Of a stretch of DNA of 64,000 bases, positions 51,171 through 64,000 are shown piece after piece; position 1 is the first letter of the stretch, and every line of letters begins with the position of its first letter. A program made the position numbers and the translations under genes. The DNA is from Bacteriovoracaceae bacterium. GTDB taxonomy: Bacteria; Bdellovibrionota; Bacteriovoracia; Bacteriovoracales; Bacteriovoracaceae. The notes under the pieces are model-generated. The model was not told the origin of the DNA and made no database searches. It saw nothing but the letters and a program-made list of their open reading frames with translations. The stretch is from the NCBI GenBank assembly GCA_048270185.1, contig JBLWTJ010000001.1, positions 512,001 to 576,000 of the forward strand, read 5' to 3'.

Positions 51171-52087
51171 GTGCACGCAACCTTTTCAAGATTCTAATAC
51201 TTTACGTTCATGTGAAGATATTCCATTAGGTATATTGAAGTAACTTCTTTTTAAGGATCTCTTCATTATATTTGAGGCATTAGAACAAAATTGTTTTTCA
51301 TAAAAACTGACTTCATCTGTATATCTGAAATGTGGTTTAAAATTAATTAAACGCCCCTCAAAATTTGTAAAATGCAAAGAACTGTATGGATATGAAATAC
51401 AACGATCAACAATCCCTGCTCTCAATGGGTTCTGATAAATATATCGATAAACATTTTGTAGGTAATTATTATCCTGAACAATAGACCACTTATAACGATT
51501 ACTAAATTTATGATTGATAACTTTTGAATATTTAGCAATTGATTTAGAGAGTCGATGATTAAATAACATCATAAATTTATCAATATTTTCATCAGGAGTG
51601 GTAATAAGAAGATGATAATGATTATTCATTAGAACAAAACAATTAACTTCAACATCAACTCTCTCTCGCGCGTAGATTAAAGCTTGCTTAGCTATATCCC
51701 AAACATGATACAAAGGTAACGGAAATGGAACCTTGTTATTTGTTCTTGATGTAACATGATATGGATACTTACTTTGTCTTATTAATTTAGGTCTAGGCAT
51801 GTTTAGCATATCTACTAATTTATAAAATAAAGCGATGATAAAAATACAATTGGAATATACATTTCATTTTTGAAATCGGTACGCGCAACCTTTTCGTGAA
51901 ATAGATAACTTATGTAATATAGATTCTTTTCGTATCAAGAGAAATAGACAATGTAGAGCATAGTATTAATTGCGCTAATCCTAGAGAGTGATTTGTATTA
52001 AGCAGAATAATAGTTAAGTGAAGGAATTGTTATTTGTAAATAAGAATCAGTATAACTGACTTGAATCACGAAAAGGTTGCGTGCACC
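51170..52087. mobile_element. RAYT element bounded by inverted REP-like sequences
   Basis: GGTGCACGCAACCTTTTC at 51170-51187, variant at 51878-51899, inverted copy at 52066-52087; AT-rich interior. Confidence 0.8.
51186..51800 (-). CDS. REP-associated tyrosine (HUH/Y1, IS200-like) transposase
   Basis: MPR, YHVTSRTNN, LMNNHYHLL (HUH), YIYQNPLRAG (catalytic Tyr), YPYSS. Confidence 0.9.
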   Translation of the reverse strand: MPRPKLIRQSKYPYHVTSRTNNKVPFPLPLYHVWDIAKQALIYARERVDVEVNCFVLMNNHYHLLITTPDENIDKFMMLFNHRLSKSIAKYSKVINHKFSNRYKWSIVQDNNYLQNVYRYIYQNPLRAGIVDRCISYPYSSLHFTNFEGRLINFKPHFRYTDEVSFYEKQFCSNASNIMKRSLKRSYFNIPNGISSHERKVLES

Positions 52088-52094
52088 AAAAACC

Positions 52095-52126
52095 AAAAAA
52101 AGAGGCCATACAATGTATGGCCCCTT
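52095..52126 (-). terminator. Terminator of the motB-like/motA-like/cNMP operon
   Basis: GGCCATAC-AAT-GTATGGCC with T tract on minus strand. Confidence 0.8.
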
Positions 52127-52146
52127 ACCTCATCTCAGCTTATAAC

Positions 52147-52608
52147 TTAGGCAGCATTTTTATTCTCAATTTCCATGATAAGGTTTGAGATTCGTTTACC
52201 TGCGCCTTGTAAACGTCCGGCCAGTAATCTTGATAGATTGAGAATCAAGAGTGAAAATATTCGAGGATTGGTTTTATACAGGCCGAATATGTCGGAGTAG
52301 TTCATGACTAAGACGTCGGTAAAGTTATCTGATTGTACTGTCCCATAGCGGACATTTTCTTTTAAAAGAACCATTTCACCAAAGAGGTCTCCCTTTTTGA
52401 TTTTGGCTATTTCTTTATTGTCGCGATTAAAAACACGAGCGGTACCGTTTAGGATTAGATAAAGCTCTTCACCAATATCACCGTGTTTGAAAACAAAATC
52501 ATCTGGTTTAAGTGTGAGAACCTTACAGTGCTCACAGATTGTCATAATCTCGTTATCATATAAATCAAAGAATAACGGACAACCTTTAACGATTGATAAT
52601 ACACTCAT
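52147..52608 (-). CDS. Stand-alone cyclic-nucleotide-binding domain protein
   Basis: VFKHGDIGEELYLILNG, GDLFGEM, RYGTV; no HTH. Confidence 0.88.
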   Translation of the reverse strand: MSVLSIVKGCPLFFDLYDNEIMTICEHCKVLTLKPDDFVFKHGDIGEELYLILNGTARVFNRDNKEIAKIKKGDLFGEMVLLKENVRYGTVQSDNFTDVLVMNYSDIFGLYKTNPRIFSLLILNLSRLLAGRLQGAGKRISNLIMEIENKNAA

Positions 52609-52623
52609 CTTGACCGCCCCTTA

Positions 52624-53595
52624 TTAAGCTATTTTCTTTTCATCATGCTTAGCTGGTGACTGATTCAAAGTTTTCTCTTCTTTCAAGTAGCGTTCGATAC
52701 TTTGAAGAACCTTAAGTACACCTTGCATAGCAGTTTGATCTTTCGAGTTACCTTTTTGAAGGTGATACCAAAGATTCTGCATTGAAGTCTCAACCTTTTT
52801 AAAGATCTTAAAACGCTTTTCAGGTAATGGGAAAAGTGTGTTTAGAAACGTTAAAATCAGTGAGAAGAAAATCCCCGCAATCGATGTCTTCATCGAGAAG
52901 GCAACGTTAATAACGAAACGAGTAAGGTTATCTGATGACTTTTCAATATTATTGAAGTCGATGGCCGCAATCTCAGGAAGGGCCATGGCAATACCAATGA
53001 ACGTACCGAAAACCCCAAAAACGATGAAAAGGTTCGGGAGAATATCGATCATACGAGATGCACCATCAATTGGAATATGCCCATAAAGCTTCGTCCAATT
53101 TCTATCATCACTCATAATACGATCAGTAAGTTCCGTATAATTTGGAGGAACAGTTGATTTAAAAACCGAACTCTCTCCATGGATTGAAGCGATAAGACCG
53201 TGTTTTGAACCAATATATTGATTTAGTGAAATACTTGATCCTCCACCATCATCAATTTCGCGATCAATTTCACGCTGGGCCATGGCCTCTTTACCATCGT
53301 AGTAACGATTTTGAATATTTGAATTGTTGCTGAATCGAAGAGCATTGTCAGGTAGGGCGGCATTCACTCGCCCTAGAAGATTTGACATATACGAATCAAT
53401 ATCATCAATAGGAATATTTTTTTGCTTATCATCATCGATGGCAGCGTCAAGCTCTCTCGTAAATCGCGAGTAATAAGCATCATCATCTTTACTGTGACGA
53501 TAAGCTAAGTAGCGAAAGACAAGGGCACAAAGCAAAAGCCCCATCATGAATTCGATAAGATAAGTACCGAAAAAACTTAATACTAACTCAATCAT
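52624..53595 (-). CDS. MotA/TolQ/ExbB/ZorA-like ion channel subunit
   Basis: N-terminal TM; LPNLFIVFGVFGTFIGI and MKTSIAGIFFSLIL TMs with conserved Thr residues. Confidence 0.82.
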   Translation of the reverse strand: MIELVLSFFGTYLIEFMMGLLLCALVFRYLAYRHSKDDDAYYSRFTRELDAAIDDDKQKNIPIDDIDSYMSNLLGRVNAALPDNALRFSNNSNIQNRYYDGKEAMAQREIDREIDDGGGSSISLNQYIGSKHGLIASIHGESSVFKSTVPPNYTELTDRIMSDDRNWTKLYGHIPIDGASRMIDILPNLFIVFGVFGTFIGIAMALPEIAAIDFNNIEKSSDNLTRFVINVAFSMKTSIAGIFFSLILTFLNTLFPLPEKRFKIFKKVETSMQNLWYHLQKGNSKDQTAMQGVLKVLQSIERYLKEEKTLNQSPAKHDEKKIA

Positions 53596-53638
53596 ACGTA
53601 CCTCTTTGTTAGGTTACCAATCCTCGACTATTGGTCAA

Positions 53639-56600
53639 CTATTTAAGTTCAGGAGAAAGTTGTAATAATCTCTCCATCGCTTTTGGATCATCTTTTAATG
53701 TAAAGCTCAGCTCAACACGTTGTGATTGTGAACAACTAAACTCACCACACTTCATGTCTTCATTTGCAAGTGGAATTGCAAAACTAGCTGGTTTTCTTTC
53801 TTCAACAATAAACCCTTTTGGTTCAATTAATTCAGCTGCAATTGACTCACGTTCACGTTCAATTACTGTCTCAAGAGGAATCGGTCTTGAGAAACCATAA
53901 CCAATTGATTTCGTCACATTACGCATATAGAACTTATATGGGTAGTTCATGCCATCACTATAGATATAGTTAGAGATAGCAAGAGCTCTTCGTGAAGAAA
54001 GGTTTAAGTTGTAGTTATACGAGTAAGCTTCTGCCATCATTGGATCAAGGGCCTTACCACCAAAGAGTGGAGACGCGTGTCCTTCAACATTGAAGCTATC
54101 TAGTTGCTCTCTTACTGTATCATCAGCAAATAGAACTTCTGAGTACAGTGGAATAAGAGACTTAAGCTTCGTTTTTGCATGCTTACTCAGTCTTGAAGAA
54201 CCTGTTTCAAATAGTAAGTTCTTATCCATTAGAAGTGTTACGTTACCTGTTTTAGGATCAACCGCTGCATCAATATTATTATTTCTAAATTTATCAGCAA
54301 GGTTTCTCGCAATATTTGCACGTAAGTTCTTCTTCTGATCTTCTACTTTTTTAGCAATCTTCTTAACTTGCTTCATGAAATCTTTCTTATCGTTAACTTC
54401 AGCAAGACATGAATTAAGTTTCTTATTAGCACCATCAAGTCCATTACCAAGTTCAGTAACCTTCTTATTCAAGGCGCTTGAACCAGTTTCACAGGCATTT
54501 AGGTCCTCACCAAGTGACGCAATCTTACGTCCAAGACTTCCGTTTTCATCATTCTTATTAGCAAGAGCATTTTGAAGATCACTAACTTCTTTTCCAAGAC
54601 CTGCAACCTTTCCATTTAGCCCATTAACTTGATCTTTTAAGCCTTTATTTTCTTTTCCAAGACCAGCAAGTTCACCCTTAGCTTTTCCCAGAGCATCTTT
54701 AAGTCCACCGATCTCTTTCCCCATACCGGCAAGTTTACCTTGGGCCTTACCTAGGGCTTCTTTTAGGCCACCGTTCTCTTTTCCAAGACCAGCAAGTTCA
54801 CCCTTAGCTTTTCCCAGAGCATCTTTAAGTCCACCGATCTCTTTACCCATACCGGCAAGTTTACCTTGGGCCTTACCTAGAGCTTCTTTTAGGCCACCGT
54901 TCTCTTTTCCAAGACCAGCAAGCTCACCCTTAGCTTTTCCAAGAGCATCTTTAAGTCCACCGATCTCTTTACCCATACCAGCAAGTTTTCCCTTTGCTTG
55001 TCCAAGTGCTTCTTTTAGGCCACCGTTCTCTTTTCCAAGACCAGCAAGCTCACCCTTAGCTTTTCCAAGAGCATCTTTAAGTCCACCGATCTCTTTACCC
55101 ATACCAGCAAGTTTTCCCTTTGCTTGTCCAAGTGCTTCTTTTAGGCCACCGTTCTCTTTTCCAAGACCAGCAAGCTCACCCTTAGCTTTTCCAAGAGCAT
55201 CTTTAAGTCCACCGATCTCTTTACCCATACCGGCCATCTTACCTTTAGCTTGTCCGAGTGCTTCTTTTAGGCCACCGATTTCCTTACCCATTCCGGCAAG
55301 TTTTCCTTTTGCCTGTCCAAGTGCTTCTTTTAGGCCACCGTTTTCTTTTCCAAGTCCTGCAAGTTCACCCTTAGCTTTTCCAAGAGCATCTTTAAGTCCA
55401 CCGATTTCCTTACCCATACCGGCCATCTTACCTTTAGCTTGTCCAAGTGCTTCTTTAAGTCCACCGATTTCTTTACCCATACCGGCCATTTTGCCTTTTG
55501 CCTGACCAAGGGCCTTCTTTAGGCCACCGATTTCTTCGCCCATACCTTTCATCTTGCCTTGGGCCTGTCCTAGAGCTTTTTTAAGCCCACCATTTTCTTC
55601 AGACATACCTGCAAGTTTTCCTTGGGCCTGACCAAGAGCTTTCTTAAGCCCACCGATCTGTTCACCCATTCCTTTCATCTTACCTTTAGCTTCACCAAGT
55701 GCCTTTTTAAGGCCACCATTTTCTTCAGACATACCTGCAAGTTTTCCTTGAGCTTGCCCAAGTGCTTTCTTAAGTCCGCCGTTTTCTTCTGACATACCTT
55801 TAAGTTTACCTTCGGCCTGCCCTAGAGCATCCTTAAGGCCACCATTTTGTGCCATAAGAGACTTCTTATCACCTTCAAGTTTTCCAACCATCGCCTTTAA
55901 ACGATCAACCTCACCAGAAAGACCCTTATTCTTTGCGTCTCCCTGTGCAAGCTTTGATTGAAGATTTTTGATGTCACCTTTTAAACCTTGATTATTTTGC
56001 TGAGAACGCGCAAGGTTTGATTTTAAACCTTTAACGTCATCATTAAGTCCTGCGATTTTGCCATCTCTTGCAGCTACATCTGCATTAAGCTTTTTAATTT
56101 CGGAATCTTTTTGAGCAGTAAGAGAATCCATTGCTTGTGCATGCTTGCCTTTTAAATCCTTAATTTGATTATCGTAAGCAAGTTTTTGATCAGACTTACT
56201 CTTCTCATATTGTTTAGTAAGATCTGTCAGCTCTCTCTTGTGATCGGCATTTAATTTTGCAATCTGTGACTGAGCATCTTTTTTAACACCAGCAAGTTGC
56301 TTATCTTTAGATTCAAGTTCTGATTGAAACTTTTTATTTAAGTCAGCAATTTTTGATTCATAGCCTGCTTTTTGTTTCGCTTCAGATTTCTTATGCATTT
56401 TTTCTAGATCAGTGATCTTCTTTGCATGATCTGAATTAAGCTTTGCAATTGTCTCTTGTGATTTTTTAATTGTTCCAGCAAGTTGCGCATCTTTAGTATC
56501 TAGTTCCGCTTGAAACTTTTTATTTAGGTTAGCGATCTTAGATTCATAACCCATCTTGGTATCTTGTTGTTGTTTTTGATGAGATTTCGTCAAATCGTTA

Positions 56601-58936
56601 ACTTTTTTAGCGTGATCTGAGTTAAGTTTTGCAATAGTTTCTTGAGACTTCTTAATTGTACCGGCAAGTTGTTTTTCTTTTGTATCAAGCTCTGACTGGT
56701 ACTTCTTATTAAGATTTGCAATTTGAGTTTCATAACCCATTTTCGTATCTTGTTCTTTTTTCTCAAATGACTTCGTTAAATCAGCAACTTGTTTAGCGTG
56801 ATCAGAGTTCATTTTAGCAATTGTTTCTTGTGACTTCTTCTTCTGACCAGCTAATTGTTGGTCCTTAGAAGTTAGCTCTGATTGAAATTTCTTATTTAGA
56901 TTAGCAATCTGAGTCTCATAACCCATCTTTGTATCTTGTTGTTTCTTTTCATAACTCTTTGTAATAGAGTCAACTTTCTTTGCATGATCAGAGTTAAGTT
57001 TTGCAATTGTGTCTTTTGACTTCTTAATTTCACCATCTAATTGCTGCTGCTTAGCAGTTAATTCGGACTGGTGCTTCTTACTTAAATTTGCAATCTGAGT
57101 CTCATGGCCCATTTGGGTATCACGCTGCTTCTTCTCATAAGACTTTGTTAAATCGTTAACTTTCTTTGCATGATCAGTATTAAGTCGAGCTATTGTCTCT
57201 TGAGACTCTTTCTTTTGACCAGCTAATTGCTTTTCTTTAACATCGAGTTCACCCTGATACTTCTTATTAAGATTAGCGATTTGTGATTCATAACCCATTT
57301 TTGTATTTTGCTGTTGTTTCTCGTAAGTCTTTGTTAAGTCAGCAACTTTCTTTTGGTGATCTGAATTAAGTCGAGCGATTGTTTCTTGAGAATCCTTCTT
57401 TTGACCTGCAAGTTGCTTTTCTTTTGTATCAAGTTCTGATTGAAACTTTTTATTCATATCAGCGACTTGTTTTTCAAAACCAGCTTTTTGTTGTTGCTTT
57501 TGTTGCTCATAGGTCTTAGTTAAGTCAGCAACTTTATTTTGATGATCAGCATTTAAGGTCTTAATCTCATGTTCTTTTGTTGAAATAATATTTGCATACT
57601 TCTTATTTAGGTTTTCAACCTTAAGAGTATGGTCTTGATTAAGCTTTTGCACTTCTTGTTCTTGAGCTTTCTTTTGCTCAACAATTTCATTTTCTAATTT
57701 TTCTTGTGCAATAATACGCCCCTGAATCTCTCGATTGGCCTTAGCGATTGCTTCTTCATTCTTTCTCTTAACCTGCTGAAGCTCCTGAATTTTCTTTGTA
57801 TCTTCTTGTACTTTAGCCAGAGTATTAGCAAGCTTTGAGCGTACTTTTACAACTTCATTATTGATTAGATTATTTTGAGCAACTTGCTCCTTAACCTTTT
57901 CTTGTTCAACTTTAAGTTTTGATTCTAATGATTTCTTAGTTACTTCAATTTGCTTGATATCTTGAGTTTGCTTAGAAACTTGAGTTTTTAACTCTTGAAG
58001 TTTCTTTTCTTGTCTTGCTTTTACGTCATTAACATTAGAAAGAAGGTTCTCAAGATCCTTCTTCTCTTTTTCCACTTCTTTCTTCTTCTTATCTAGTTCT
58101 CCGACACGAGAAAATAAAATATTTTCCTTATCTTTAGCTTTAGCAAGCATCGAGTCACGATCTTTAATTGCTTTTTCAAGATCAATTAATGATTTCTCTT
58201 TATGCTCTAGCACAACTTTGATTTGCTTCTTCTCTTCTTCTTTCTTTTTAATTTCTTCTTTTGTTTCTTTTAGACTCTCAGAAAGCTTTTCATTTTCTTT
58301 TGACTTTTGTTTCATTTCTTTCTGAATTTGCTGAATTTTCTTTTGAAGCTCTTTTTCTTCTTTTTTCTGACGCTCCATCATTCTTGATAACTTATCAAGC
58401 TGGGCCTCTTTTGAACGAAGGTCATCGTCATTTTTACGAATCTCTTCAAGACGTTTCTTAAGCTCTTCAGCTTTCTCATTGATTTCTTTCTTTAACTGAG
58501 TATTTTCACGTGAGATTTTTTTAGATTTGTATTTTTCTTTATCAAGTTGTTGACCAACTTTTTCGACAATAGACTCTTTTTTGATTTGGTCCTTGACCAT
58601 ATCCTGCATTACTTTCTTATTTTGCTCTAATTTTTCGACAAATTTTGAAAGTTCGACCATCTTCTGGTTAATAACGTTCTTATAATCAGTGACCTCATTG
58701 ATTGATTGCTCAATCTTATTCTTGGCCTTCATCTCTTTTATTTTCTGTTCTTTAGAGACCATCCCTTGCATTTGTTCTTCGTGTTTCTTCTTTTCTTGCG
58801 CTTGCTGCAAAGACTTCACCCCGACCTTAATCATGGCGAAAACGAACATAACAAGGAATACAACGGCAACGGTTGTAAACATATCTGAGTATGAACTCCA
58901 GATTGACCCGTCGTCTTTTCTTTCTTCTCTTTTCAT
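53639..58936 (-). CDS. Giant MotB/ZorB-like protein: TM with Asp, ~1500-aa coiled coil, C-terminal OmpA-like peptidoglycan-binding domain
   Basis: IWSSYSDMFTT TM; LLFETGSS, VEGHAS, NLNLSSRRA, GYGFSRP, SQRVEL. Confidence 0.85.
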   Translation of the reverse strand: MKREERKDDGSIWSSYSDMFTTVAVVFLVMFVFAMIKVGVKSLQQAQEKKKHEEQMQGMVSKEQKIKEMKAKNKIEQSINEVTDYKNVINQKMVELSKFVEKLEQNKKVMQDMVKDQIKKESIVEKVGQQLDKEKYKSKKISRENTQLKKEINEKAEELKKRLEEIRKNDDDLRSKEAQLDKLSRMMERQKKEEKELQKKIQQIQKEMKQKSKENEKLSESLKETKEEIKKKEEEKKQIKVVLEHKEKSLIDLEKAIKDRDSMLAKAKDKENILFSRVGELDKKKKEVEKEKKDLENLLSNVNDVKARQEKKLQELKTQVSKQTQDIKQIEVTKKSLESKLKVEQEKVKEQVAQNNLINNEVVKVRSKLANTLAKVQEDTKKIQELQQVKRKNEEAIAKANREIQGRIIAQEKLENEIVEQKKAQEQEVQKLNQDHTLKVENLNKKYANIISTKEHEIKTLNADHQNKVADLTKTYEQQKQQQKAGFEKQVADMNKKFQSELDTKEKQLAGQKKDSQETIARLNSDHQKKVADLTKTYEKQQQNTKMGYESQIANLNKKYQGELDVKEKQLAGQKKESQETIARLNTDHAKKVNDLTKSYEKKQRDTQMGHETQIANLSKKHQSELTAKQQQLDGEIKKSKDTIAKLNSDHAKKVDSITKSYEKKQQDTKMGYETQIANLNKKFQSELTSKDQQLAGQKKKSQETIAKMNSDHAKQVADLTKSFEKKEQDTKMGYETQIANLNKKYQSELDTKEKQLAGTIKKSQETIAKLNSDHAKKVNDLTKSHQKQQQDTKMGYESKIANLNKKFQAELDTKDAQLAGTIKKSQETIAKLNSDHAKKITDLEKMHKKSEAKQKAGYESKIADLNKKFQSELESKDKQLAGVKKDAQSQIAKLNADHKRELTDLTKQYEKSKSDQKLAYDNQIKDLKGKHAQAMDSLTAQKDSEIKKLNADVAARDGKIAGLNDDVKGLKSNLARSQQNNQGLKGDIKNLQSKLAQGDAKNKGLSGEVDRLKAMVGKLEGDKKSLMAQNGGLKDALGQAEGKLKGMSEENGGLKKALGQAQGKLAGMSEENGGLKKALGEAKGKMKGMGEQIGGLKKALGQAQGKLAGMSEENGGLKKALGQAQGKMKGMGEEIGGLKKALGQAKGKMAGMGKEIGGLKEALGQAKGKMAGMGKEIGGLKDALGKAKGELAGLGKENGGLKEALGQAKGKLAGMGKEIGGLKEALGQAKGKMAGMGKEIGGLKDALGKAKGELAGLGKENGGLKEALGQAKGKLAGMGKEIGGLKDALGKAKGELAGLGKENGGLKEALGQAKGKLAGMGKEIGGLKDALGKAKGELAGLGKENGGLKEALGKAQGKLAGMGKEIGGLKDALGKAKGELAGLGKENGGLKEALGKAQGKLAGMGKEIGGLKDALGKAKGELAGLGKENKGLKDQVNGLNGKVAGLGKEVSDLQNALANKNDENGSLGRKIASLGEDLNACETGSSALNKKVTELGNGLDGANKKLNSCLAEVNDKKDFMKQVKKIAKKVEDQKKNLRANIARNLADKFRNNNIDAAVDPKTGNVTLLMDKNLLFETGSSRLSKHAKTKLKSLIPLYSEVLFADDTVREQLDSFNVEGHASPLFGGKALDPMMAEAYSYNYNLNLSSRRALAISNYIYSDGMNYPYKFYMRNVTKSIGYGFSRPIPLETVIERERESIAAELIEPKGFIVEERKPASFAIPLANEDMKCGEFSCSQSQRVELSFTLKDDPKAMERLLQLSPELK
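54650..55846 (-). repeat. 19 x 63-bp coding tandem repeat (21-aa Gly-rich unit) with 126-bp higher-order periodicity
   Basis: (N/I)GGLK(E/D/K)ALG(Q/K)AKG(K/E)LAG(M/L)GKE counted 19 times. Confidence 0.92.
56130..57560 (-). repeat. About 8 x 186-bp coding repeat (62-aa unit)
   Basis: LNxDH motif recurs every 186 bp (56241, 56427, 56613, 56799, 56985, 57171, 57357, 57543). Confidence 0.9.
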
Positions 58937-59060
58937 AATCCTACCCTCGAACAGTTGATAGGATAGCGATTTATAGAACTTATTAAATACTAGTTATGTT
59001 ATGGGCCTAATATTTAGAAGATTCTTCAATTATTTCATGGTGTTAATAAAGAATTCCTGT

Positions 59061-59104
59061 AATTTCATGCTATTTTCAACTTTTTTGTTGGCATGAAATT
59101 TGTG
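59061..59104. promoter_or_regulatory. Inverted repeat in divergent intergenic region, overlapping a near-sigma54 motif
   Basis: AATTTCATGC-N20-GCATGAAATT; TGGCATGAAATTTGT has -24 GG but GT at -12. Confidence 0.4.
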
Positions 59105-59261
59105 ACAAGTTTTAAAGGCATCACAATATAATATGTTGAAGCGCCAATTAAATGAGTCCTCATACCTGACATGATCATTCCACAATACCCTTCAACATAC
59201 CGTTATCTCGTAAATCCTAGAATTAACTACGGCATTTTTTAACCCTAAATTATATTAATCT

Positions 59262-59288
59262 TAAGTAGTTACGTTATTGCGACGATAA
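59262..59288 (+). promoter_or_regulatory. Sigma28 (FliA)-type promoter
   Basis: TAAG-N15-GACGATAA, 16 bp before ATG 59305. Confidence 0.55.
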
Positions 59289-59304
59289 ATACTTGGGATA
59301 CTTA

Positions 59305-62300
59305 ATGAAGATTTTTACACGCAAGTTACAATTTATATTTATATTATCGCTACTAGTAGCGCTTGCCTCTTCGTGTGTGCCCCAAGCGGCCAATAATCGT
59401 AGTGCGGCCAGTGATGAAAGTGACAGTGTCGAAACTGAAATTAATGATCCAACTTTTTCAAACGCTAAAGGCTTTATCCAATACGCAGGCAACGCCTACA
59501 CTTCACTATTTGAAATCGATAATTACTTTGATGATAATATTAGTATTCGCGGCCGTGGTATTCACAACTACGTAAAAGAAAACTTATCAAAGACATATTG
59601 TGCAATTACAAATTTCTCTGTCATAAATAGTGGAACCCCTCTTATAGCAGTAGGATTCCCTCAATATACACTAGACTCTTCTACAAATACTCGTGAGTAC
59701 TTTATTCGTTTCACGTACCGTAGTATTGATGCGGCCATTACTGAAAATTACTGTAATAATTCGGCCGTTTTAAGTTTTATGAGTGGTAAGGGACTTAATA
59801 CAGGTAATCGAAAGTATGATATTGATGATATTTGTCCTACATGTTCAAATCAAACAACATCTTCAAACGCATTATTACTGACAACAAGTTCAGGTGATGA
59901 TCTAACGACAGCACTTGGGGCAACTCTTACAGTAAAGTTATACTTCACATACACGAGTACAACAGATCCTAGTAATAACCTTTGTTCTGCTGACTCACAA
60001 TGTGCTGTCAATGGCGAAGACTTCTGTTGTCTTAATGGTCAATGTGTAAAGGATCTCTCTGAAAAAACTGATTCAATTCCAAACTCGATTTTAACAGAGG
60101 TCGCAGCTAATCCATCTAGTATTTACAACTATCCTAATTACTATAATATTTGTACTCAAGGGACTATTCCTGATGAAGGAGATAGTGATGAATACACTCC
60201 AGATGAGGAAGCGGCCATTCGTTTTAAACGCCTTAAGCAACTCTACCAATGTACAACACCATTTGATGGTGAACGTGGAATTTGTACAACAATTTATGAG
60301 GGTGCTAGGACTGACTTAGAATCAAATTATGAAACAAATATTGATGATACAAATTTTGCTTCTATCTATAAAGGGTCATACCCTCTTGCTAACTCAATAC
60401 ATGAGATACGCTATCAGAATGCAGTAATCTACAAGAATGGAGCCTCTGTTGTTCCAGGTCAAGTTACAGTCTCAGGGATAAATGATAATCTAACTGATAC
60501 AACTAAACTTGCTATCACAACACCTTATGTAGCAACAAATAAGTACAAGAACTTAGAAATTGATGCCTACACTGATGTATCTTGTACACGAATCAATAGT
60601 TTCCAGGCCCAGTGTTACAAGGTTTACAAACAAGGACAAAATGAAGGTAAGGCCACTGACCACTTCCCAGGAACACAGAGGTTTGAACTTCCATTTTACG
60701 CAAATATTAATTATAAAGTTGTTGTACTAGTTGATGATGTTGCAAGAACACAAAATACTTCTTGGACACTATCGGCAGGAGCAAGCAACGAGGTTGTCTT
60801 CAATAGCGATCATATTGTTCAAGATTCACAAGAAGTTAAGATCAACTTCTATGTCGATCTAACAACTTATCCAACTATATTAACTTCCAAAGAAGCTGCA
60901 CAACAGGAGATTGCAACTTATTGTAAGTGTAGTCTTAACCAATGTGAACTGGAAGAAGTTTTAAATACAAGTGATACAGTTGTTGATTATCAATGTCGTC
61001 TGATTCCAACTCAAAGTGAGCCACCAAAGCAACAACAACTCTACTTATCAGCAAAGACAGCACCACAACGCTACTTTGATAGTAATGGAGTTTCAAAGAA
61101 TGGACTTAGCCTATCTGATGTAATTCTAGAGCCAAATCTCGCTCAAGAAGGAACAGCATTCTCTTATATAGGTAATGATAAATCTAAGCCAAATAATGTG
61201 AACGACTATATTGGATTTAACGAAATCTACGGAAGCTTTGACTTAACAAGTAATTCAGCAAAGCCTGCCAAAGAAATTGAAGTAAAAGAAGGAACAACTT
61301 ATGATATTTTTGTATCAGGTGGTAACTACTCAAGTTGTTCAGGCTGTGGGAATGACTACTACTCTTCTTCTCTTAAAGTTTATCCAAATGAATTCGTTAA
61401 TGGTGCAGCAGGATATCAACCAGATCTAACAACTTCTAGTCGAACTAAAACTCAAAAATATCGCTCAGATGATTTTTCTTTTGGCCGTGCATGTTTTGTT
61501 CCTGCAACAATGGTTGCTTGGACTCACCAAGAATATGAAGACCAGCAAGAACAACGCCTTAATCGAATGAAGGCCCAGCACTTCTTAGTGGCAAACGGGT
61601 ACGATAGAGATTGGTATGGTTTTAACTATGGCTCAGTCATAGGATCATTCGACGGTGTGAAATGGTTTGCCGTTGGAACAAAGAGACGCATCAAAGCAAC
61701 AAGTAATAAATTATTCCTAGCAATAAATGCTAAATTATCTGACCAGACGATTGAAAATAGCTACACAGTTCTTGTTCAGGATTCAATTATTAACGGAAGT
61801 GCCGTTCTTCCAACAACAGACTACGAAACAGACGGGGCCTCTTGTCAGCAAGTACATGCCTGTAACACAGATAGTGAATGTGTTTCATCACTTGGTTGGG
61901 ACTATATGTGTGAGAATGTATCAACACTGTCATCGCCTTATCCAAACTTTGATGTTAATGGTAATGAAATACCGCAAGAGTCAGATATAGATCGAATTCT
62001 TTCTCTAAGTGGATCTTTTTCAGGTGGAGTAAAACGTTGTGTTTACCGTGGCCGTGGAGCTGCCTGTTTACCAGATTATAATAATGTCACATCAACATCG
62101 ACATCATACACTGCTGTCGGGACAAAGAGACTACATGGTTGTTCATTTAACAATCACTGTGAACCACTTGAAAGCAGTAATAATGCGAAATTTAACAATA
62201 AGATTTCAAGAAATGCTACAAGTCTAATTTTTCAAAATGGACAAGTCGATAATGAAGAAGAACTTGTCTCGACAGTAGGACTTCTTGCTCCAATTATCGG

Positions 62301-64000
62301 ACGTCCTCAGAAGTACATTGGTGATGAAGTACCAAATAACAATGCTAAGAGAAACTTAATATTAAATAATGTTGAAGGTATATGTATCCCAGGTCGTGAC
62401 GCTAATCTTGAAGACGTAGTGATCTCTATGGATCAAGGCTCCGACTTAACACCTGACTTTATTGGAAATATGGGAAATACTGTTTCCGATCTTCAGAACT
62501 CAACAAATATCAATACATTTGTCAGCTGCCCTACTTTTGATACATCAGGAGATTATGCAGCATTTAATCGCCTACAAAACGTAAGTGCAATGTCGAGTGA
62601 AATACAATTACTTTCACGCTCACAAAACTTGTCGACTTATTTTCTAGAAATATTCTCAGGCTTAACTAATGATGAGTTAACAAGAGATATTAATGACACA
62701 ACAAATACCGCTATTGAACAACTTGCCCTACCTGTTAATGCTTGTCTTAGAGCACCAGGTTCAACTTGTTTCACCGACCTCGATTGTTCGGCATCAAAGT
62801 TCATTACAGATAATACGAAAGGTGTTGATATTGAAGATTTACTTGTAGCAACAAGTAAGTATGAATTGTCATTCTGGCAGACTGAGCTTGTTTGTGCCCA
62901 ACCTGCACGTGTTGGTGATAGTGACTACGATATCAGAAATAACCGCTGTTGTTCAGAAATTGGTAACACATTTAAAGTACCAACTCTTGACTACAATACA
63001 GGTGTTCCAATTACAACTGACTCTGAAATTATCTCTACTGATTCAGTAGATCTTGAAAAAGTTCCTGGAGCAGAAATAGGCGCCAAAACAGGAACTCGCT
63101 TCTCAGGTACAGTATTAACAGAGTATGAGCGAGAAAATGGTGTTGATAACATAAAGACAATGAGAATAGCTGGTGTTGATAGTGTTACCGATGCTTCTTC
63201 AACTGTAGATGCACAATATAAATTACTTTCAACTTATGGACGAAAAATGTGCTGTAGTGAAAACTGGGTACGAAGCTTTCACAAAGAAGATAACGGTGGT
63301 GGCCATGAATGGGGACCAAATAAAATGCAGGCCCACGGACTTACATCACTAGAAGACTTTAAGTGCTATAACTATGCTGATCAAGATGCAACTAACTGTG
63401 CGGCCAATTCTGCACAAGACCCAGATGAGTGTTCACTAGTTGATATTCCAGATCCTATCGGACTTGATATCACAAAATGGCTTAGCTACTACGAACTGAC
63501 AGGTATTCCAAATATTGTCATTAGCGATCATCAAATGGGAATAACTGATGGCGATGTTCCTCTATGTTCAAAGCCAATCTATCGCTCAACTGGAGCAACA
63601 CCAGAGTATGTCAACCCTGATGGATACACTCTCCAGAATAAGAATGATTTTGATGGGACTGCAGCTGCATCATTTAAAACAGTTTTTGAAAGCGATGAAT
63701 TTGCATGTTGTATGCCTTCTGGAACACAGATGGCAGCTGGAGATGATCCAAATATGTGTTGTACAGGATACATCAATCCTCAAAATAATAAGTGCCAACT
63801 TAAAAACTTTTCAAATGTTACGGCCTATACAAATCGTTATGTTTCAAGTGAACTACAAAACCTACCAGATTCTGAATTTGAGCAGAAAACTGGAATGATG
63901 AATGATCGTGAGAAGCTAGCGGTTATTGCTTGTGAAAAGCAGATGTGTGCAGATGGTTTTGTTGCATTCGGTTTAGTACATGGACAATATGGGCTACCTG
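59305..64000 (+). CDS. Very large Cys-rich lipoprotein (>1565 aa, runs off window end)
   Basis: Absent from ORF track (no stop in window). MKIFTRKLQFIFILSLLVALASSCVPQ lipobox; no stop found in the stretches translated by hand and still open at 64000; CxxDxxC/CC clusters. Confidence 0.88.
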   Translation, partial: MKIFTRKLQFIFILSLLVALASSCVPQAANNRSAASDESDSVETEINDPTFSNAKGFIQYAGNAYTSLFEIDNYFDDNISIRGRGIHNYVKENLSKTYCAITNFSVINSGTPLIAVGFPQYTLDSSTNTREYFIRFTYRSIDAAITENYCNNSAVLSFMSGKGLNTGNRKYDIDDICPTCSNQTTSSNALLLTTSSGDDLTTALGATLTVKLYFTYTSTTDPSNNLCSADSQCAVNGEDFCCLNGQCVKDLSEKTDSIPNSILTEVAANPSSIYNYPNYYNICTQGTIPDEGDSDEYTPDEEAAIRFKRLKQLYQCTTPFDGERGICTTIYEGARTDLESNYETNIDDTNFASIYKGSYPLANSIHEIRYQNAVIYKNGASVVPGQVTVSGINDNLTDTTKLAITTPYVATNKYKNLEIDAYTDVSCTRINSFQAQCYKVYKQGQNEGKATDHFPGTQRFELPFYANINYKVVVLVDDVARTQNTSWTLSAGASNEVVFNSDHIVQDSQEVKINFYVDLTTYPTILTSKEAAQQEIATYCKCSLNQCELEEVLNTSDTVVDYQCRLIPTQSEPPKQQQLYLSAKTAPQRYFDSNGVSKNGLSLSDVILEPNLAQEGTAFSYIGNDKSKPNNVNDYIGFNEIYGSFDLTSNSAKPAKEIEVKEGTTYDIFVSGGNYSSCSGCGNDYYSSSLKVYPNEFVNGAAGYQPDLTTSSRTKTQKYRSDDFSFGRACFVPATMVAWTHQEYEDQQEQRLNRMKAQHFLVANGYDRDWYGFNYGSVIGSFDGVKWFAVGTKRRIKATSNKLFLAINAKLSDQTIENSYTVLVQDSIINGSAVLPTTDYETDGASCQQVHACNTDSECVSSLGWDYMCENVSTLSSPYPNFDVNGNEIPQESDIDRILSLSGSFSGGVKRCVYRGRGAACLPDYNNVTSTSTSYTAVGTKRLHGCSFNNHCEPLESSNNAKFNNKISRNATSLIFQNGQVDNEEELVSTVGLLAPIIGRPQKYIGDEVPNNNAKRNLILNNVEGICIPGRDANLEDVVISMDQGSDLTPDFIGNMGNTVSDLQNSTNINTFVSCPTFDTSGDYAAFNRLQNVSAMSSEIQLLSRSQNLSTYFLEIFSGLTNDELTRDINDTTNTAIEQLALPVNACLRAPGSTCFTDLDCSASKFITDNTKGVDIEDLLVATSKYELSFWQTELVCAQPARVGDSDYDIRNNRCCSEIGNTFKVPTLDYNTGVPITTDSEIISTDSVDLEKVPGAEIGAKTGTRFSGTVLTEYERENGVDNIKTMRIAGVDSVTDASSTVDAQYKLLSTYGRKMCCSENWVRSFHKEDNGGGHEWGPNKMQAHGLTSLEDFKCYNYADQDATNCAANSAQDPDECSLVDIPDPIGLDITKWLSYYELTGIPNIVISDHQMGITDGDVPLCSKPIYRSTGATPEYVNPDGYTLQNKNDFDGTAAASFKTVFESDEFACCMPSGTQMAAGDDPNMCCTGYINPQNNKCQLKNFSNVTAYTNRYVSSELQNLPDSEFEQKTGMMNDREKLAVIACEKQMCADGFVAFGLVHGQYGLP

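Follow-up and report, generated by a model that had tools for sequence, protein, structure and literature searches.

A conserved ZorAB/ExbBD-type gene pair of Bdellovibrionota with a predicted long periplasmic axle and a linked cyclic-nucleotide-binding partner

What kind of machine could be built from a stator-like gene pair whose wall-binding subunit is 1765 amino acids long, and why should it be linked to a gene for a cyclic-nucleotide-binding protein? This question is raised by an operon found in a 64,000-nucleotide stretch (the window) of the genome of a Bacteriovoracaceae bacterium, corresponding to positions 512,001 to 576,000 of contig JBLWTJ010000001.1 (assembly GCA_048270185.1); all positions given below are those of the window. 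Near-identical proteins carry public names that assign the genome to Halobacteriovorax. The operon lies on the minus strand and its genes follow each other head to tail. They potentially encode an axle-like protein (B), a channel subunit (A) and a protein binding cyclic nucleoside monophosphates (cNMP) (Table 1). An earlier note, made from the sequence of the window, had placed it, as yet undescribed, in the MotAB/ExbBD/ZorAB motor superfamily. The sequence comparisons presented here bear this out and indicate that the operon belongs to an uncharacterised, conserved branch of the ZorAB/ExbBD motor lineage, which comprises two subtypes. The window operon is not unique to its genome and represents one extreme of the family in B length. 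The architecture itself can be predicted with high confidence. That it works as an ion-driven motor of 5:2 stoichiometry, with a long cell-wall tether as its axle and with gating from inside by a second messenger, is put forward tentatively as the favoured reading, at somewhat below even chances.

The two ends of the B protein resemble those of MotB and ZorB. Residues 13-18 form a W-x-x-Y-S-D motif preceding the sole hydrophobic segment, and Asp18 is invariant in the 16 family members that were aligned (16/16), so that B has the one N-terminal membrane helix with a conserved Asp typical of B-type subunits of the superfamily. At the other end, an AlphaFold2 (AF2) model of the wall-binding domain, built from 52 sequences, matched ZorB best in Foldseek (8vvn_B, E 1.4e-8), followed by 8vvi and then by PA0833, MotB, MotS, PomB and Pal; 45 solved chains were matched at E 1e-3 or better. 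Across the same 52 sequences, no variation is seen in the wall-contact motif N-x-x-L-S-x-x-R-A or in two cysteines (C-x4-C). Both the fold and the motif are those of OmpA-like/MotB-type domains, from which binding of the C-terminal domain to the cell wall is predicted; the Pfam OmpA model itself remained below its cut-off in the family relatives tested. Because of this domain and of the MotB/ZorB-type orientation of the helix, the rod and the C-terminal domain are expected to be periplasmic. The transmembrane Asp and the peptidoglycan-binding domain had both been recognised in the earlier note, as had the location of the extra length on the periplasmic B subunit and not on the cytoplasmic side of A, and these points hold.

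Between the two ends lies a rod of about 1,470 residues, and proline is absent from residues 1-1560. Heptad periodicity exceeded that of all 300 shuffled sequences only in residues 45-460 and 957-1510, and in the third zone of the rod the hydrophobic residues follow a perfect 3-4-3-4 spacing. The earlier note had described about 1500 residues of coiled coil, about 220 nm long. The long proline-free rod was confirmed; the continuous coiled coil was not, and 220 nm must be taken as an upper bound because the 62-residue repeats (461-956) show no heptad signal. By our own arithmetic (0.1485 nm per residue), the rod would measure about 218 nm as one continuous helix and about 144 nm with the 62-residue repeat zone counted as nil. 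Intact B genes of sister genomes encode 1653 and 1758 amino acids. In three sister genomes, 19, 14 and 19 units of 21 residues and 8, 8 and 7 units of 62 residues were counted. The copy number of the 63-nucleotide array is taken from this assembly, with the sister genomes as the only other source, because the short-read contigs of three DNA runs break inside the array. In one sister assembly (L047, 2562-7956), the B gene is split into two overlapping open reading frames (ORFs; 1304 and 534 amino acids) inside the repeat region, due to either a frameshift or a repeat assembly error.

Other searches with B were of little help. The protein has a weak match to the Pfam crescentin-rod model. Matches to Pfam DUF2470, CENP-F, SMC and Rad50 were rejected as repeat or coiled-coil noise, being below cut-off or devoid of a significant stretch. 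In the ESM Atlas, the 62-residue repeat zone hit generic coiled-coil clusters only, with scores of 0.85 or less, and the NCBIfam model PRK09039 (a coiled-coil wall-binding protein) gave only sub-cut-off matches in the own genome and in control genomes. A word-indexed search with B residues 1-70 against proteins of 970-3089 amino acids yielded four candidates, none of which scored; as known orthologues were missed by it too, it has no bearing on other giant B proteins.

Protein A has three hydrophobic segments, and its AF2 model (35 sequences, mean predicted local distance difference test value, pLDDT, of 80.5) is all-helical. Structures of ZorA, ExbB and TolQ fill the top 49 ranks in Foldseek, none of them reaching E 1e-3. 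With VIA-align, the model gave Z values of 10-12 over 200-237 residues to ZorA, ExbB and TolQ, which were tied, and of 7.2-7.6 to PomA and MotA; helical models can score Z up to about 13 by arrangement alone, so that A lies near the helical background. Its fold is nonetheless that of an A-type subunit as far as such values can tell. The best profile scores were obtained with ZorA models (PADLOC 1.9e-9; NCBIfam down to 3.7e-10, the best at 39.4 bits vs a cut-off of 100), while Pfam MotA_ExbB reached 14 bits vs a cut-off of 22.9. In alignments of 11 and of 35 sequences, Pro187, Phe190, Gly194, Gly197, Thr198 and Phe199 of the second transmembrane helix (TM2) and Met235, Ser238, Gly241, Ile242 and Asn252 of the third (TM3) are invariant, and Ser245 nearly so. 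A Pro together with polar Thr/Ser residues in the two inner helices is what is found in A-type subunits, and by homology these Pro, Thr and Ser residues would face the Asp of B. As to the channel Thr motifs claimed in the earlier note, Thr198 stands; Thr237 of TM3 is not invariant, the conserved positions there being Ser238 and Ser245. The short tail claimed for A was found as described: only about 65 residues follow TM3, and A is therefore considered to lack a tail of the Zorya type.

The third gene was predicted to encode a soluble, single-domain reader of cyclic nucleotides with intact ligand-contact residues. Its phosphate-binding cassette keeps Gly77, Glu78 and Arg87 in all 30 sequences compared, and a profile of 30 orthologues matched the cyclic-nucleotide domains of PKG, the PKA regulatory subunit, Epac and CAP at 1e-48 to 1e-14. 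With its above-cut-off Pfam score and its intact cassette, the protein has the hallmarks of CAP/PKA-type domains. It consists of the bare binding domain plus a helix, with no hydrophobic segment and no second domain. The cassette Arg is followed by Tyr, in place of the Thr or Ser present in most relatives. A single class III cyclase and ten cNMP domains are encoded in the genome.

Complex prediction for A and the cNMP protein gave a score of 0.39, the best of three controls scoring 0.00; the runs agreed on at least 79% of contacts and the partner pLDDT was at least 77. Among 157 solved complexes, 116 pass the mark used for such predictions, as do 2 of 215 mismatched pairs; at 0.60 or under, only 18 of the 157 solved complexes pass, along with both of these mismatches, so binding of the cNMP protein to A is only weakly predicted. 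The two proteins also share a C-terminal tripeptide (K or E, then A, V, G, S or T, then A, S or G; typically K-A-A or K-A-S), encoded at 52624-52632 in A and at 52147-52155 in the cNMP gene. It ends 61 of 80 A subunits, of both subtypes, and 26 of 34 cNMP proteins (loci L047-L126), compared with 29 of 2675 genome ORFs of at least 150 amino acids; the FHA proteins introduced below are without it. The tripeptide could be a docking peptide or a degradation tag. At one distant locus (L041, 7310-8494, minus strand), a gene for an HD-GYP-type (HD_5) phosphodiesterase shares 4 bp with the end of the cNMP gene, which adds another gene of nucleotide signalling to the module.

Table 1. Positions of the operon genes and of their main features in the window
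Feature	Position	Strand	Basis
B subunit gene (ZorB/MotB-like axle protein, 1765 amino acids)	53639..58936	-	ORF and translation; PADLOC ZorB1 3.4e-30 on residues 1525-1687; orthologues directly 5' of A wherever upstream DNA exists
Asp18 codon and single transmembrane helix of B (residues 18-36)	58829..58885	-	W-x-x-Y-S-D; one hydrophobic segment, 15-33; weak match of residues 5-37 to MotB_plug
Rod zone 1 (residues 45-460), K/E-rich heptad coiled coil	57557..58804	-	period-3.5 power 4.9 vs shuffle maximum 1.4; no proline
Rod zone 2 (residues 461-956), eight 62-residue repeats without heptad periodicity	56069..57556	-	Tandem Repeats Finder (TRF) 186-nucleotide period 56427-57454; eight repeat starts; no period-3.5 signal
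Rod zone 3 (residues ~1031-1430), 19 glycine-rich 21-residue (three-heptad) repeats	54647..55846	-	TRF 63/126-nucleotide array 54651-55843; 28% Gly; period-3.5 power 15.0 vs shuffle maximum 1.5
Predicted peptidoglycan-binding OmpA-like domain, ZorB type (residues 1521-1765), with invariant C-x4-C pair	53642..54376	-	AF2 pLDDT 83.8; Foldseek ZorB 8vvn_B 1.4e-8; invariant motif
A subunit gene (tail-less three-helix ExbB/TolQ/ZorA-type channel subunit, 323 amino acids)	52624..53595	-	PADLOC ZorA 1.9e-9; AF2 pLDDT 80.5; VIA-align; three hydrophobic segments
TM2-loop-TM3 core of A (residues 185-255), with invariant Pro187, Gly-Thr198-Phe, Ser238, Gly241, Asn252	52831..53043	-	alignment columns, 11 and 35 sequences
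Soluble cNMP-binding protein gene (153 amino acids)	52147..52608	-	Pfam cNMP_binding 8.5e-15, 54.9 bits vs cut-off 27.5
Intrinsic terminator closing the operon	52100..52126	-	12-pair stem, 6 G-C, then T run; directly 3' of the cNMP-gene stop codon

The layout of the operon agrees with the earlier description in its ORFs, strand, gaps (43 bp and 15 bp) and terminator, the latter (52126-52100) being the sole strong minus-strand terminator within 51800-59400. Contigs from an RNA library matched the operon with 0-1 differences at 52128-52611 (the cNMP gene), 52924-53262 and 53289-53713, which spans the A-B junction, and at three parts of B in one run. They do not prove a single transcript, and the parts of B lacking contigs carry no weight; as DNA carry-over is possible, they are a mere hint of transcription. 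Also as described earlier, no zorC, zorD, zorE, flagellar, Tol or Ton genes adjoin the operon, as seen by PADLOC and by Pfam inspection of the neighbouring genes. In PADLOC, A and B matched the ZorA and ZorB models only, with no effector-gene models.

To which known motors is the pair closest? When family hidden Markov models were run against the genome, the next-best matches were canonical zorA (1.4e-7) and zorB (1.2e-5), ahead of six MotA_ExbB genes that pass the Pfam cut-off. ZorAB is accordingly taken as the nearest known relative, and the sequence and structural comparisons suggest the order ZorAB first, then ExbBD and TolQR. The matching zorA and zorB belong to the core of a canonical type I Zorya system on contig C21 (5978 bp) of the same genome, with a zorA of 688 codons (PADLOC 2.9e-246), a zorB of 251 codons and then an ORF of 480 codons.

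Relatives of A were then considered across genomes. At E 1e-3 or better, 188 were present among 1.84 billion representative proteins. The locus counts below refer to the best 80 of 426 A relatives from a scan of one genome per species; another 15 loci had been fetched earlier. Nearly all of these 80 belong to Bdellovibrionota (Bacteriovoracia, Bdellovibrionia and Oligoflexia), with a few metagenome-assembled genomes (MAGs) labelled Gammaproteobacteria, WWE3 or Auribacterota. Strong A-profile matches (E 1e-56 or better) occur in 64 of 201 sampled Bdellovibrionota genomes, three weak extras being long ZorA-like ORFs. The window's own family accounts for 18 of them (35 genomes sampled) and that of B. 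bacteriovorus for 17 (20 genomes sampled); the family profile had no match in the searched genomes of several other Bdellovibrionota families. The 17 same-family genomes without the module are 97-100% complete, and the module is therefore widespread but dispensable.

The gene pair itself is constant. B lies directly upstream of A at every locus having upstream DNA, and the 68 distinct complete B proteins range from 522 to 1765 amino acids with rods almost free of proline; the four longest (1653-1765 amino acids) are those of the window's genus. Operon conservation and variation in stalk length were among the checks proposed earlier. A downstream ORF on the same strand is present at 63 of the 80 loci, encoding a cNMP protein of about 150 amino acids at 35, a large FHA protein at 24 and another protein at 4. 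In the close clade, all 35 downstream ORFs scanned are cNMP genes, and the 15 loci fetched earlier comprise ten with a cNMP gene, four with an FHA gene and one with neither, so that the link to the cNMP gene is conserved.

A quick maximum-likelihood tree of 87 distinct A proteins showed a deep split (100% in the Shimodaira-Hasegawa-like approximate likelihood ratio test) into clades of 49 (41 cNMP-linked, 8 unlinked) and 38 (26 FHA-linked, 12 unlinked) proteins. No cNMP or FHA label crosses it. B proteins of the FHA type are short and uniform (534-672 amino acids, n=22) and those of the cNMP type variable (522-1765 amino acids, n=31). Of 15 FHA proteins that were checked, ten possess just one hydrophobic segment, located some 180 residues before the C-terminus. 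The window's genome contains the cNMP subtype only.

B-A pairs were also seen in MAGs labelled Silvanigrellaceae, and the core pair may occur outside Bdellovibrionota, judging from the MAG labels. Family A genes are present at the MAG loci L095, L112 and L114 (labelled Gammaproteobacteria), L117 ('uncultured bacterium') and L125. B is directly upstream of A in the first three and complete in L112 (881 amino acids) and L114 (821 amino acids); the L117 contig starts at A, and L125 holds a truncated A only. The A genes of the three Gammaproteobacteria-labelled loci and L117 form a four-row clade inside the FHA side of the tree, have no third gene and differ at the C-terminus of A.

The FHA subtype is represented in the predator B. 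bacteriovorus HD100. In strain Tiberius, the FHA protein falls into one 90%-identity cluster with the HD100 'Large Ala/Glu-rich protein', which is listed as Bd1169 in a proteome supplement (PMC12546842). By gene order, B of HD100 would then be Bd1167 ('microtubule binding protein') and A would be Bd1168. The trio shares the B-A core and the invariant residues with the window operon and differs in its third gene, which encodes an FHA protein of 794 residues in which an Ala/Glu-rich coiled coil is accompanied by one hydrophobic segment near residue 615. In the supplement, Bd1167, Bd1168 and Bd1169 are detected with 41, 16 and 52 unique peptides, and their values peak in attack phase and are about one unit lower at 2-4 h (8.65, 7.47, then 8.37 for Bd1167, units as tabulated; PMC12546842). 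Bd1167 is given as down-regulated at 30 min of predation, and was earlier termed 'crescentin-like' (both in PMC2797640). The supplements of a polar-hub proximity study (PMC11025332) make no mention of Bd1167-Bd1169. A candidate 'FHA domain' locus of strain 109J, EP01_RS11970, was rejected, its neighbours being unrelated. No functional study of the module or of Bd1167-Bd1169 was found in the openly readable literature, subscription-only papers lying outside the search, and the available part of a MotAB survey (PMC12505986) leaves ZorAB out of its trees and does not describe the present family.

Taken together, these features would fit the following mechanism. Five A subunits would surround a B dimer, and ion flow past Asp18 would drive rotation of A and B relative to each other. 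Since even the shortest rods (about 250 residues, about 37 nm of coiled coil) exceed the gap between membrane and wall, the rod would run obliquely or along the membrane and attach the axle to a remote point of the wall. Binding of a cyclic nucleotide, or of a phosphothreonine mark in the FHA type, might let the reader dock on the cytoplasmic face of A and gate ion flow or rotation, as the cyclic di-GMP (c-di-GMP) protein YcgR does on MotA. Control from inside out is favoured because both kinds of partner, cNMP and FHA, are pure readers without an enzymatic output domain. The rod would then transmit a mechanical effect (tension, torsion or positioning) to the free-living cell's envelope. The long-reach anchor to the prey wall suggested in the earlier note is unlikely: B is rooted in the inner membrane of the predator and ends in a wall-binding domain of its own periplasm, and the B-A pairs in Gammaproteobacteria- and Silvanigrellaceae-labelled MAGs disfavour it further.

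A bolder form of this proposal is a periplasmic winch or torsion spring. Here the A ring would be held by the reader while the proton- or sodium-driven B dimer twists an axle of 40-200 nm, pulling or bending the envelope on command of cAMP/cGMP or, in the FHA subtype, of Ser/Thr phosphorylation, perhaps while the cell squeezes through the prey wall; the repeat copy number would tune the reach. This version is speculative and quite improbable as it stands.

Several observations count against the tethered motor gated from inside. The fold assignment of A is open to the reservations made above, with Z values near the helical background and no Foldseek match at E 1e-3, and the sequence similarity to solved ZorA and ZorB is weak (E 3e-3 and 2e-4). 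The predicted contact between A and the cNMP protein is weak as well, the inside-out direction of signalling is argued from domain content alone, and the module is patchy, with near-complete genomes lacking it in the window's own family. In the HD100 proteome, the value of B is about two units over that of A (8.65 vs 6.57, units as tabulated; PMC12546842), which at face value points to a bulk structural protein more than to a partner in a 2:5 complex. Finally, Bd1167-Bd1169 are absent from three supplement files of a transposon sequencing study of B. bacteriovorus 109J that carry HD100 names (PMC6561027).

The direction of signalling might be the reverse, in which case the module would be an outside-in envelope sensor comparable to Zorya: the rod and the wall-binding domain would report deformation or damage, the channel would open, A would turn and the cNMP or FHA protein would be signalled. 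ZorAB, the closest homologue, needs its wall-binding domain and ion flow to sense phage attack (PMC11890865), a longer tether would sample a larger wall area, and expression in Bdellovibrio peaks in attack phase, with the envelope stressed at prey entry. Against this, neither kind of partner has an output domain (the cNMP protein consists of its binding domain and a helix), the module has no conserved effector gene beside it, and a reader domain is more naturally an input. We consider this alternative unlikely, if worth keeping in mind.

The excess of B over A in the HD100 proteome could alternatively mean that the module is mainly structural, B being a 'periskeletal' periplasmic coiled coil that links inner membrane and wall or determines cell shape, and A a membrane socket without ion flow. 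The name 'crescentin-like' given to Bd1167 (PMC2797640), the weak Pfam crescentin-rod match and the free variation of rod length by gain or loss of repeats would suit such a role. However, both deep subtypes have the same invariant Asp in B and the same invariant Pro, Thr and Ser in the two inner helices of A, which is hard to explain without an ion pathway, and B never occurs without A at the loci examined. A mainly structural role is judged improbable.

A new Zorya-like anti-phage system using a cyclic nucleotide was also considered. Besides the homology to ZorAB, it could account for the match of the cNMP protein to the cNMP domains of Pycsar effectors in PADLOC (1e-10), for the adjoining IS200-like gene and for the patchy distribution even within genera (one of four genomes in g2, two of four in g5 and one of three in g7). 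But no nuclease, TIR, pore or cyclase gene lies in or beside the module at the loci examined, every Zorya-defining feature tested is absent and a canonical type I zorA-zorB pair is present elsewhere in the genome. Moreover, the family is nearly restricted to one phylum, where defence systems usually spread widely, and the Bdellovibrio proteins give many peptides and track the life cycle. A defence function thus has poor prospects. An accessory stator for a sheathed flagellum or for gliding would agree with membership of the stator superfamily and with the peak of the Bdellovibrio relatives in the motile attack phase, but is very improbable, as A has three hydrophobic segments vs the four membrane helices of flagellar MotA, resembles MotA/PomA less (Z 7.2-7.6) than ExbB/TolQ/ZorA (10-12) and stays below the Pfam MotA_ExbB cut-off (14 vs 22.9 bits). 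No motility gene adjoins the operon, the genome has six regular MotA_ExbB genes, and the module is missing from 17 of 35 same-family genomes.

The genes around the operon are an IS200-like gene, cinA and a giant ORF without Pfam match. The IS200/Y1-transposase-like ORF (51186-51809, minus strand; Pfam Y1_Tnp 1.7e-7) lies between the operon terminator and cinA, and is not found at the equivalent place in the sister-genome locus L033. The giant ORF (59293-63999, plus strand) is divergent from the operon, encodes at least 1569 amino acids and is open at the window end. At L033, a counterpart of 1628 amino acids with a lipoprotein-like signal peptide occupies the equivalent position. This gene is not kept next to the module in more distant genomes.

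The characterised 5:2 motors (flagellar stators, Ton, Tol, gliding and type 9 secretion, Zorya) each power a distinct and important envelope process. The present family keeps the ion-pathway residues in an arrangement for which no earlier description was found, with the length on the periplasmic axle, a bare A, a reversed gene order and a dedicated reader of a second messenger or of phosphothreonine. It could reveal a new use of this type of motor, perhaps a missing piece of the mechanics of predator cells. As the sister subtype is well expressed in the genetically tractable B. bacteriovorus HD100, the job of the family is testable there, and the natural series of B lengths (522-1765 amino acids) offers a ready experiment on the role of the rod.

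Among known systems, the ZorA-ZorB pair of Zorya types I and II (PDB 8qyd, 8vvn, 8vvi) is the most similar. It provides the best profile matches for A and B, the best structural matches for the wall-binding domain (E 1.4e-8) and the tied-best ones for A. In ZorAB, the Asp of the B helix faces conserved Ser/Thr residues of A (PMC11890865), and both elements are shared by the window operon. As described in the same article, Zorya is defined by effector genes, a long ZorA tail needed for defence and a wall-binding domain that rests immediately on the helices (PMC11890865). In contrast, the window A is without a long cytoplasmic tail, while the true ZorA of the same genome has 688 amino acids, and in B proteins of the family the helix is separated from the wall-binding domain by 250-1,500 additional residues. 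The order is B then A instead of the A then B of canonical zorA-zorB, and a cNMP or FHA reader takes the place of zorC/D, zorE or zorF/G. The scores are also under the NCBIfam cut-offs (39.4 bits vs 100). Since neither the defining features of Zorya (long ZorA tail, effector genes) nor above-cut-off scores were found, the operon is not filed as Zorya.

The ExbB-ExbD-TonB and TolQ-TolR-TolA systems have in common with the module the three-helix fold of A (Z 10-11 over about 200 residues) and a motor that spans the periplasm by means of a long extended element. In the window, this element is predicted to be fused to B and to end in a wall-binding domain, instead of being a separate TonB or TolA reaching the outer membrane, and no TonB, TolA or Pal gene adjoins the operon. 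GldL-GldM and PorL-PorM, which serve gliding and type 9 secretion, are 5:2 motors whose two-copy subunit forms a long periplasmic work-transmitting shaft. No sequence relationship to them was seen in the searches made, and GldM is not known to have a wall-binding domain and is far shorter than the window B. For the third gene, the proposed model is MotAB with its c-di-GMP brake YcgR, a small soluble protein that reads a second messenger and acts on MotA from the cytoplasmic side; FlgX is a further example of a PilZ protein paired with a stator. In the window, the messenger and the fold of the reader differ, the reader is encoded in the operon and the motor is not flagellar, but the cNMP protein would likewise be a reader acting on the cytoplasmic face of A.

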